Origin: a virus
Lineage: Duplodnaviria; Heunggongvirae; Uroviricota; Caudoviricetes
Direction: 5' to 3' (one strand)
Length of the DNA stretch: 5,205 nt
IMG/VR virus record: IMGVR_UViG_2693429662_000020
Coordinates: 1 to 5,205 of that record
Part shown: positions 2,878 to 3,485 of the stretch, piece after piece
How the letters are laid out: each line of letters begins with the position of its first letter
Position numbering within the stretch: the first letter of the stretch is position 1
Program-made: the position numbers and the translations under genes
The notes under the pieces: model-generated
What the model was told of the DNA's origin: nothing
What the model saw: only the letters and a program-made list of their open reading frames with translations
Databases searched by the model: none

Positions 2878-2889
2878 CTGAAAAATGAT
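2875..2889. repeat. Left copy of an imperfect 15-bp direct repeat (CATCTGAAAAATGAT) flanking the AT-rich island; overlaps the nanS-p start codon
   Basis: Matches 13 of 15 positions with CATCTGACAAAATCA at 3471-3485; read directly from the sequence. Confidence 0.4.
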
Positions 2890-3052
2890 TCTTTAAAATA
2901 CCTGACATGTAATACAGAAAAAACACAAAACCATACCTTAAATAAAAACCTCATCATCAAGCAGATATGCATGGATAAACTACAAGACGAGATATAAACC
3001 ACCCTGCATTTAAATAAACAATAAACAACATCAGAAAAATAATTCTGCTCTA

Positions 3053-3082
3053 TGGTTTACAATCAAAAATATCATTTATACT
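3053..3082 (+). promoter_or_regulatory. Candidate sigma70 promoter for the orphan ORF (-35 TGGTTT or TTTACA; -10 TATACT at 3077-3082)
   Basis: The -10 hexamer TATACT matches consensus at 5 of 6 positions. The -35 is weak or mis-spaced (15 or 18 nt). AT-rich DNA produces such matches easily, so this is low confidence. Confidence 0.25.
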
Positions 3083-3122
3083 TTTCAGAACATCACCAGC
3101 AAGGCATAAACAAGGAAACTAA

Positions 3123-3458
3123 ATGAAGTGGATTGTGATTGATACAGTTATCCAGCCATCATGCGGAATATCTTTTTCAGTCATATGGAGTAAAATAAAA
3201 TTAATAATCTGGTATCAATCGGATGCTTTCTTACCTCCTGAAAGTATATTTACACTGACTCACACAGGCATCATGCTCAATAACAAAGTGCTACCTGTAA
3301 CCATTTACAACGTAGTACCATTCAATAAAACATTCTGGAATTTAATCAAAAACAGCCAGGAATGCCCTACAAATACAGATAACGTATTGAATGAATGCTT
3401 TAATAACCGTTGCACTCTGCAAATATGTCCTTATGGGCTAAAACAACAAAGTCCATAA
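3123..3458 (+). CDS. Hypothetical orphan protein, 111 aa, AT-rich codon usage, Cys-rich C-terminus
   Basis: It is the only ORF of at least 60 codons in the AT-rich island, where stop codons are frequent (rough chance of 111 stop-free codons about 2e-4 per start). SD AAGGA at 3112-3116 sits 6 nt before the ATG. I recognise no homolog. It is convergent with the phage late genes. Confidence 0.45.
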
Positions 3459-3470
3459 GGAGTTTACTCA

Positions 3471-3485
3471 CATCTGACAAAATCA
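3471..3485. repeat. Right copy of the imperfect 15-bp direct repeat (CATCTGACAAAATCA)
   Basis: Matches 13 of 15 positions with 2875-2889; marks the tRNA-proximal edge of the AT-rich island. Confidence 0.4.

Follow-up and report, generated by a model that had tools for sequence, protein, structure and literature searches.

An AT-rich cassette beside nanS-p among the late genes of a lambdoid prophage carries the anti-adaptor gene iraL

The AT-rich island beside nanS-p in the window (the whole 5,205-nt stretch of DNA analyzed here) is, with high probability, the iraL moron of a lambdoid prophage, and its 111-aa product, IraL, blocks RssB and stabilizes RpoS. The gene is iraL, which is already published and widely annotated, and the finding is therefore already known. 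Sequence identity, family membership, the match of promoter and start site, the limits of the cassette, its distribution and the purifying selection on it were computed in this work, and RssB binding and RpoS stabilization are taken from the literature on the identical protein. The features of the locus are collected in Table 1.

Table 1. Features of the window (window positions, except for the last line)
Feature	Position	Strand	Basis
Class II P21-S-type holin gene	640–855	−	PF04971, E 2e-32; annotated in L001
nanS-p, DUF1737-SASA-DUF6645 sialate O-acetylesterase, 618 aa	1006–2862	−	Pfam; start codon from the L001 annotation
iraL cassette (variable AT-rich moron)	2863–3490		Alignment with the ira-less prophages L005 and L006 and the Stx2c prophage L004
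Putative −35 hexamer TTTACA of the iraL σ70 promoter	3056–3061	+	Custom scan; same in CFT073
Putative −10 hexamer TATACT	3077–3082	+	Ends 7 nt upstream of start site 3090
iraL transcription start site	3090	+	Match to the 5′-RACE end from PMC4045071
Shine-Dalgarno-like AAGGAA	3112–3117	+	Read from the sequence
iraL CDS, 111 aa + stop, RssB anti-adaptor	3123–3458	+	Identity to CFT073 IraL, NF007393, 8TWD, K-12 IraM
STnc100/PasD-family prophage sRNA gene	3484–3673	−	Rfam RF02076, 132.4 bits (gathering 47), E 6e-30, model 1–206 of 206
GC-rich hairpin	3493–3514		Terminator scan, folds, Rfam alignment; U-tract on − strand only
Empty stx site	3707–3708		Flanks border stx2AB when aligned to the Stx2c prophage L004
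Intrinsic terminator directly downstream of tRNA-Arg	3718–3735	−	Terminator scan, folds
Phage tRNA-Arg (UCU) gene	3750–3826	−	ARAGORN, Rfam tRNA
3′ fragment (26 nt) of a second tRNA-Arg gene, cut by IS421	3840–3865	−	Homology to intact tRNA-Arg genes stops at 3863–3865
IS421 (IS4-like), ~1.34 kb	3863–5205	−	25-bp terminal inverted repeats 3863–3887 and 5181–5205; transposase 4036–5154, DDE_Tnp_1
Third IraM-family paralogue, O157:H7 Z1815 Stx2c prophage	L004 6115–6438		Flanked by nanS-p and the STnc100 segment that follows stx2B

Identity, promoter and integrity of the cassette gene

The original prediction placed a single credible ORF of 111 aa in the island, on the strand opposite to the late genes and behind a good Shine-Dalgarno sequence. 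All of this was borne out: the ORF is the single long one of the island, it lies on the plus strand, and AAGGAA stands 5 nt ahead of its ATG. Amino acid sequence comparison showed that its product is identical, at 111 of 111 residues, to IraL (WP_000871291.1) of the uropathogenic E. coli strain CFT073, which was described as an IraM homologue at 58.9% identity (Hryckowian et al. 2014, mBio; PMC4045071). At the nucleotide level 335 of 336 positions of the CDS agree with CFT073 iraL, the sole change being synonymous, so that the gene is iraL by the definition used in that study (an identity of 95% or more to CFT073 iraL across the entire CDS); identity to K-12 iraM is just 69.8%. The product matched the NCBIfam model NF007393 (IraM) over residues 1–110 with 162 bits against a cutoff of 121, and its residues 1–78 aligned without gaps to PDB entry 8TWD, the crystallized β-barrel core of IraM (E = 9e-32). 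K-12 IraM shares 62% aa identity with it, ungapped over 107 residues. In every one of the RefSeq matches listed the ORF is labeled “anti-adapter protein IraM”, and the UniRef name for the exact protein is likewise IraM (representative IRAM_ECO27). Pairwise dN/dS values among IraL, IraM and a third paralogue were 0.10–0.17 (0.13–0.17 for IraL with either of the other two), indicating purifying selection.

The same ORF had been described as an orphan that resembles nothing recognizable. This description was mistaken, given the identity to the characterized CFT073 protein and the matches to NF007393 and 8TWD, and the island corresponds to a well-characterized, annotated element (iraL in PMC4045071, labeled IraM in RefSeq and UniRef), an outcome that the prediction itself had named as counting against its reading. 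A Pfam search of the ORF gave no match and its only PHROGs match was phrog_4407, labeled “unknown function”, which may be why the ORF can look like an orphan.

A 5′-RACE mRNA 5′ end of iraL has been published (PMC4045071). This sequence, ACATCACCAGCAAGGCATAAACAAGGAAACCA, matches window positions 3090–3121 at 31 of 32 nt (one mismatch), with a chance expectation of zero, and the iraL start site is therefore position 3090. A σ70-like promoter was reported upstream of the mapped start site (PMC4045071); TTTACA and TATACT as its particular bases are putative and were read here from the sequence. Together the two hexamers match 10 of 12 consensus positions and are separated by a 15-bp spacer, which is short for σ70. 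A generic promoter scan did not find this promoter because it considered 16–18-bp spacers only, whereas a custom scan did (TTTACA-15-TATACT). Both hexamers are identical in the window and CFT073. The region upstream of iraL is about 98% identical to that of CFT073, and three bases differ around the promoter and leader (3062, 3089 and 3120), none of them in the −35 or −10 hexamer.

In later work, iraL mRNA was reported to increase when fur was mutated in CFT073 and when the temperature was raised from 23 to 37 °C. The best candidate in a Fur-box scan of the iraL upstream region scored 11 of 19 positions, a value equaled by 95% of shuffles, and any effect of Fur is therefore probably indirect. 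A PhoP-box-like direct repeat, TGTTTA-TTGTT-TATTTA, was observed on the minus strand at 3011–3027, which is about 63–79 bp upstream of the start site; it fits at 11 of 12 positions and may be due to chance, with about 5% of shuffles of the AT-rich region equaling it.

A gene that is iraL by sequence may nevertheless be silent or ineffective in the source strain, and thus inert cargo, through H-NS-type silencing, base differences, or a defective host rssB or rpoS. Such a state would be in keeping with the upstream GC content of 29–30%, with the three bases around the promoter and leader that differ from CFT073, with the promoter mutations carried by some iraL copies (PMC4045071), and with an mRNA that is condition-dependent (up at 37 °C and in the fur mutant). 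We nevertheless regard it as unlikely, since both promoter hexamers and the start site are undamaged and agree with CFT073, and the ORF is likewise unbroken and subject to purifying selection. The allele in the window is, moreover, the majority allele: the island was found at an identity of at least 90% in 1,446 of 5,426 complete E. coli genomes, and at an identity of at least 99% in 806 of these. The preferred reading is thus that of a working iraL gene, in which the lysogen would make the 111-aa IraL from its own σ70 promoter, with transcription starting at 3090; this expression in the source strain is predicted from the intact promoter and start site.

Binding to RssB and stabilization of RpoS

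RssB hands RpoS to ClpXP, a delivery that anti-adaptors block by binding RssB (PMC4045071; PMC10844676). For IraL itself, binding to RssB was detected in two-hybrid and pull-down assays, deletion of iraL resulted in less log-phase σS in CFT073 and S. sonnei, and the half-life of σS dropped from ~5 to ~2.5 min without iraL (PMC4045071). IraL made by the lysogen would accordingly be expected to bind the response-regulator-like adaptor RssB, so that RpoS would not be delivered to the ClpXP protease, would live longer and would build up even in exponential growth.

By homology with the IraM–RssB crystal, the β-barrel core of IraL (residues 1–78) would dock on the α4-β5-α5 face of the RssB receiver, which is also the face that binds σS (PMC10844676). 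IraM contacts RssB through 15 residues in three clusters, which touch the receiver α4-β5-α5 face, the C-terminal domain and the linker (PMC10844676). Eleven of the 15 are identical in IraL, including all five of cluster I, which makes the N-terminal-domain contacts. The four changes (T13S, L75I, H63N and I64V) are conservative and all fall in the clusters for the C-terminal domain and the linker. In the two-hybrid assay IraL bound only RssB's N-terminal domain, whereas IraM binds both RssB domains (PMC4045071). The confinement of the IraL changes to the C-terminal-domain and linker contacts fits this restricted binding, a link that we infer here, and because of the same difference the geometry of the IraM co-crystal may not fully transfer to IraL.

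The tail of IraL (residues 81–107, window 3363–3443) is Cys-rich: C81, C92, C97 and C102 and a CPYG motif are invariant across the three paralogues, and dN/dS for this part was 0.10–0.29, again indicating purifying selection. The IraM tail was removed for structure determination and was called less conserved and flexible (PMC10844676). A metal-binding or redox role for the Cys tail of IraL is possible, judging from these residues.

The IraM core has the same fold as PmrD, the PmrA connector, and both proteins bind the receiver domain of a response regulator (PMC10844676). PmrD gave no sequence match to IraL in the Pfam and PDB searches, and it has another partner and another outcome. IraL could on this ground be imagined to act chiefly as a PmrD-like connector on another response regulator, for instance by shielding a phosphorylated receiver, with the effect on RpoS being secondary. 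PmrD is the only PDB fold that IraM resembles and IraM raises net RssB phosphorylation (PMC10844676), and IraL binds just the receiver (N-terminal) domain of RssB (PMC4045071). Direct RssB binding and a change in σS half-life have, however, been demonstrated for IraL (PMC4045071) and no other IraL partner has been reported, which makes such a primary role very improbable; an RssB anti-adaptor remains the reading adopted here.

Anatomy of the interval between the tRNA genes and nanS-p

The window is the late region of a lambdoid prophage, carried on the minus strand and running from high to low coordinates through an IS, tRNA-Arg, a GC-rich segment, the AT-rich stretch, nanS-p (the first late gene after the cassette), the holin gene and a DUF1327/YdfR gene. 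The predicted order of the flanks was thus upheld, with tRNA-Arg(UCU) identified by ARAGORN, then nanS-p, then a P21-S-type holin (PF04971). The holin opens with M-Y-Q-M, so that translation could begin at either of two codons, three apart, as in the dual start of the P21 S holin/antiholin; the longer, 97-aa holin ORF of the mechanical ORF list probably does not have the real start. At the other end, homologous copies of the IS are annotated as “IS4-like element IS421 family transposase”. The end of the window coincides exactly with the end of IS421, and the IS421/tRNA junction was absent from the complete E. coli genomes of the collection.

The GC content of 2878–3485, the island as first delimited, is 32.7%, compared with 52.6% in the left and 51.5% in the right flank. 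The island is therefore real, and its predicted coordinates were nearly exact. In an alignment with L005 and L006, two prophages with the same flanks and no ira gene, homology ends at the nanS-p start codon (2860–2862) and picks up again at about 3491, at the hairpin AAAGCCCCTCCGGAGAGGGGCTGG, and the cassette therefore extends from 2863 to about 3490, with a GC content of 34.8% in the CDS and 30.4% in the intergenic part. It sits between the nanS-p start codon and the terminator hairpin of STnc100. The island is a moron, a piece of prophage cargo gained by horizontal transfer, and has a promoter of its own that is directed against the late operon. In the lysogen, two minus-strand terminators would insulate iraL from the Q-dependent late operon against which it reads.

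The GC-rich segment (~290 bp) to the right of the cassette is a full-length STnc100 gene, convergent with iraL. RefSeq shows merely a “partial hypothetical protein” at this position. STnc100/PasD sRNAs are known at such a site, beside the esterase gene and ~75 nt downstream of stx2 (bioRxiv 10.64898/2026.05.13.724894; PMC12370729). On the minus strand, the hairpin at 3493–3514 serves STnc100 as its intrinsic terminator; on the plus strand it is a 3′ hairpin of iraL and lacks a U-tract. As it is a proper terminator on the sRNA strand only, iraL transcripts may read antisense into STnc100. Several iraL-type or related prophages carry the STnc100 segment in two diverged copies (~70–72% identical) with a DUF3927 gene between them (L001, 9613–9825 and 10077–10305; L005, 2297–2525 and 2781–3152; L007 likewise). 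The window has one copy, and its iraL–tRNA interval is consequently ~600–900 bp shorter than that of CFT073 or DA33133.

The original prediction assigned the island to the slot that holds stxAB in Shiga-toxin phages. This is right insofar as the island lies within the Q–tRNA–nanS-p–holin late interval, but it is not at the stx junction. BLAST aligned window 1729–3706 to positions 4696–6693 of the Stx2c prophage L004 and window 3709–3864 to positions 8027–8182. The 1.33-kb stx block of L004, in which stx2A and stx2B are annotated at 6735–7975, therefore falls in a 2-bp gap of the window, at 3707/3708. This junction lies between the tRNA cluster and STnc100, and the cassette is on the other side of STnc100, ~220 bp to the left of the stx site. 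The O157:H7 Stx2c prophage reads Q, tRNAs, stx2A, stx2B, the STnc100 segment, an oppositely oriented IraM-family gene, and nanS-p. The further claim that the island replaces stxAB was thus incorrect: an ira cassette stands beside stx2AB in that prophage. Since stx maps to 3707/3708 and a homologous ira cassette coexists with stx2c, the two are adjacent, distinct sites, both of which can be filled; in the window the stx site is empty and the ira site is filled. As a whole, the interval is a row of neighboring but separate sites, one each for stx, the sRNA STnc100 and the ira cassette.

The expectation of a lysogenic-conversion factor held in kind, in that the product alters host physiology and the gene has its own promoter, but not in its novelty, as iraL is published. 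The alternative of a phage-defense factor found no support: the PADLOC defense-protein models gave no match to the ORF at E values up to 1. An uncharacterized conversion or anti-phage factor without relatives in a toxin slot, as first proposed, would suit a piece of AT-rich prophage cargo that has a promoter of its own and sits in the hypervariable stretch from the tRNAs to nanS-p, and would be compatible with the “unknown function” of phrog_4407, but can practically be dismissed against the identity to characterized IraL, the curated-family and solved-structure matches, the negative PADLOC search and an stx insertion point at another site.

Related systems, distribution and significance

CFT073 IraL (c1429), encoded in the prophage at potB, is the closest known counterpart, with the same protein, promoter hexamers and start site as the window. 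Like the window gene, it is oriented against the lambdoid late region in which it lies and is flanked by the tRNA cluster and nanS-p. The two loci differ by the one synonymous CDS base and a few upstream bases. Moreover, nanS-p is intact in the window and truncated in CFT073, CFT073 has a DUF3927 segment between iraL and the tRNAs that the window does not have, and IS421 in the tRNA of the window contrasts with an IS200 next to Q in CFT073. K-12 IraM (YcgW) is a member of the NF007393 family, and iraM and iraL are both AT-rich. However, the iraM locus adjoins icd and ycgX and has neither tRNA genes nor nanS-p as neighbors, and its homology to the window is confined to the CDS. The two genes also differ in regulation, IraM being stress-induced (Mg2+ starvation/PhoP) and IraL a log-phase protein. 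RssC of Salmonella is an IraL/IraM-like anti-adaptor, 47–49% identical and reported in Salmonella only (PMC4045071).

The third paralogue, WP_001303568.1 (107 aa), is carried by Stx2c and some Stx2a phages and occupies, on the opposite strand, the same cassette position as iraL, from the STnc100 terminator to nanS-p. Its sequence is of a distinct type, which shares 74.8% aa and 78% nt identity with IraL and 65.4% aa and 71% nt identity with IraM. Its upstream region is partly homologous to that of iraL, and unlike the iraL of the window it adjoins stx2AB. It was found in 236 of the 5,426 complete E. coli genomes, mostly O157:H7 among the matches listed, and in 41 phage records, mostly unannotated among those listed. 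A literature search for a link between IraM and stx2c, or for work on the Stx2c-phage paralogue, found none.

The exact IraL protein occurs on at least 1,000 contigs. The nanS-p 5′ end, iraL and the tRNA-proximal sequence were contiguous (at least 80% coverage) in 590 genomes, and others had a truncated nanS-p, as in CFT073, or an extra DUF3927 segment. An identical IraL is present in E. albertii in the same context, and this locus shares with those of CFT073 and DA33133 the order of tRNAs, iraL on the opposite strand, nanS-p and holin. Among uropathogenic, prostatitis and Shigella isolates, IraL is over-represented. Only four phage records contained the iraL island and none of them was an Stx phage, which is consistent with the reported under-representation of iraL in EHEC and STEC (PMC4045071). 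Distant IraM-family relatives (31–32% identity) were observed in an Enterobacteriaceae MAG (L012), in Pseudescherichia sp. (L013) and in an Escherichia species representative (L014), with no adjoining tRNA genes, and the family therefore reaches beyond E. coli, Shigella and Salmonella. The species representatives were scanned by short peptide patterns, a procedure that misses divergent relatives such as Salmonella RssC.

Lambdoid late regions might be seen as hosts to a portable “RpoS-tuning” module, the ira cassette, which holds iraL in the window and the third paralogue in Stx2c phages and some of the Stx2a type, and whose placement is perhaps functional. We consider this a speculative idea, with the balance leaning well against it. 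As the cassette is antisense within the Q-dependent late transcript, prophage induction could switch the RpoS stabilizer off, and read-through from iraL could interfere with STnc100, the two genes being convergent on a common hairpin.

The Stx2c-phage paralogue, which lies outside the window, is the sole mildly new item of this analysis. It might lie behind the high log-phase RpoS of iraL-negative STEC, for which PMC4045071 gave no explanation. For annotation, the locus suggests that AT-rich, opposite-strand ORFs in lambdoid late regions should be compared with IraL and IraM before they are labeled as orphans, and its anatomy clarifies the make-up of the hypervariable tRNA–nanS-p interval. That prophage regulators rewire the general stress response of the host is already appreciated, and the iraL locus is an instance of it.
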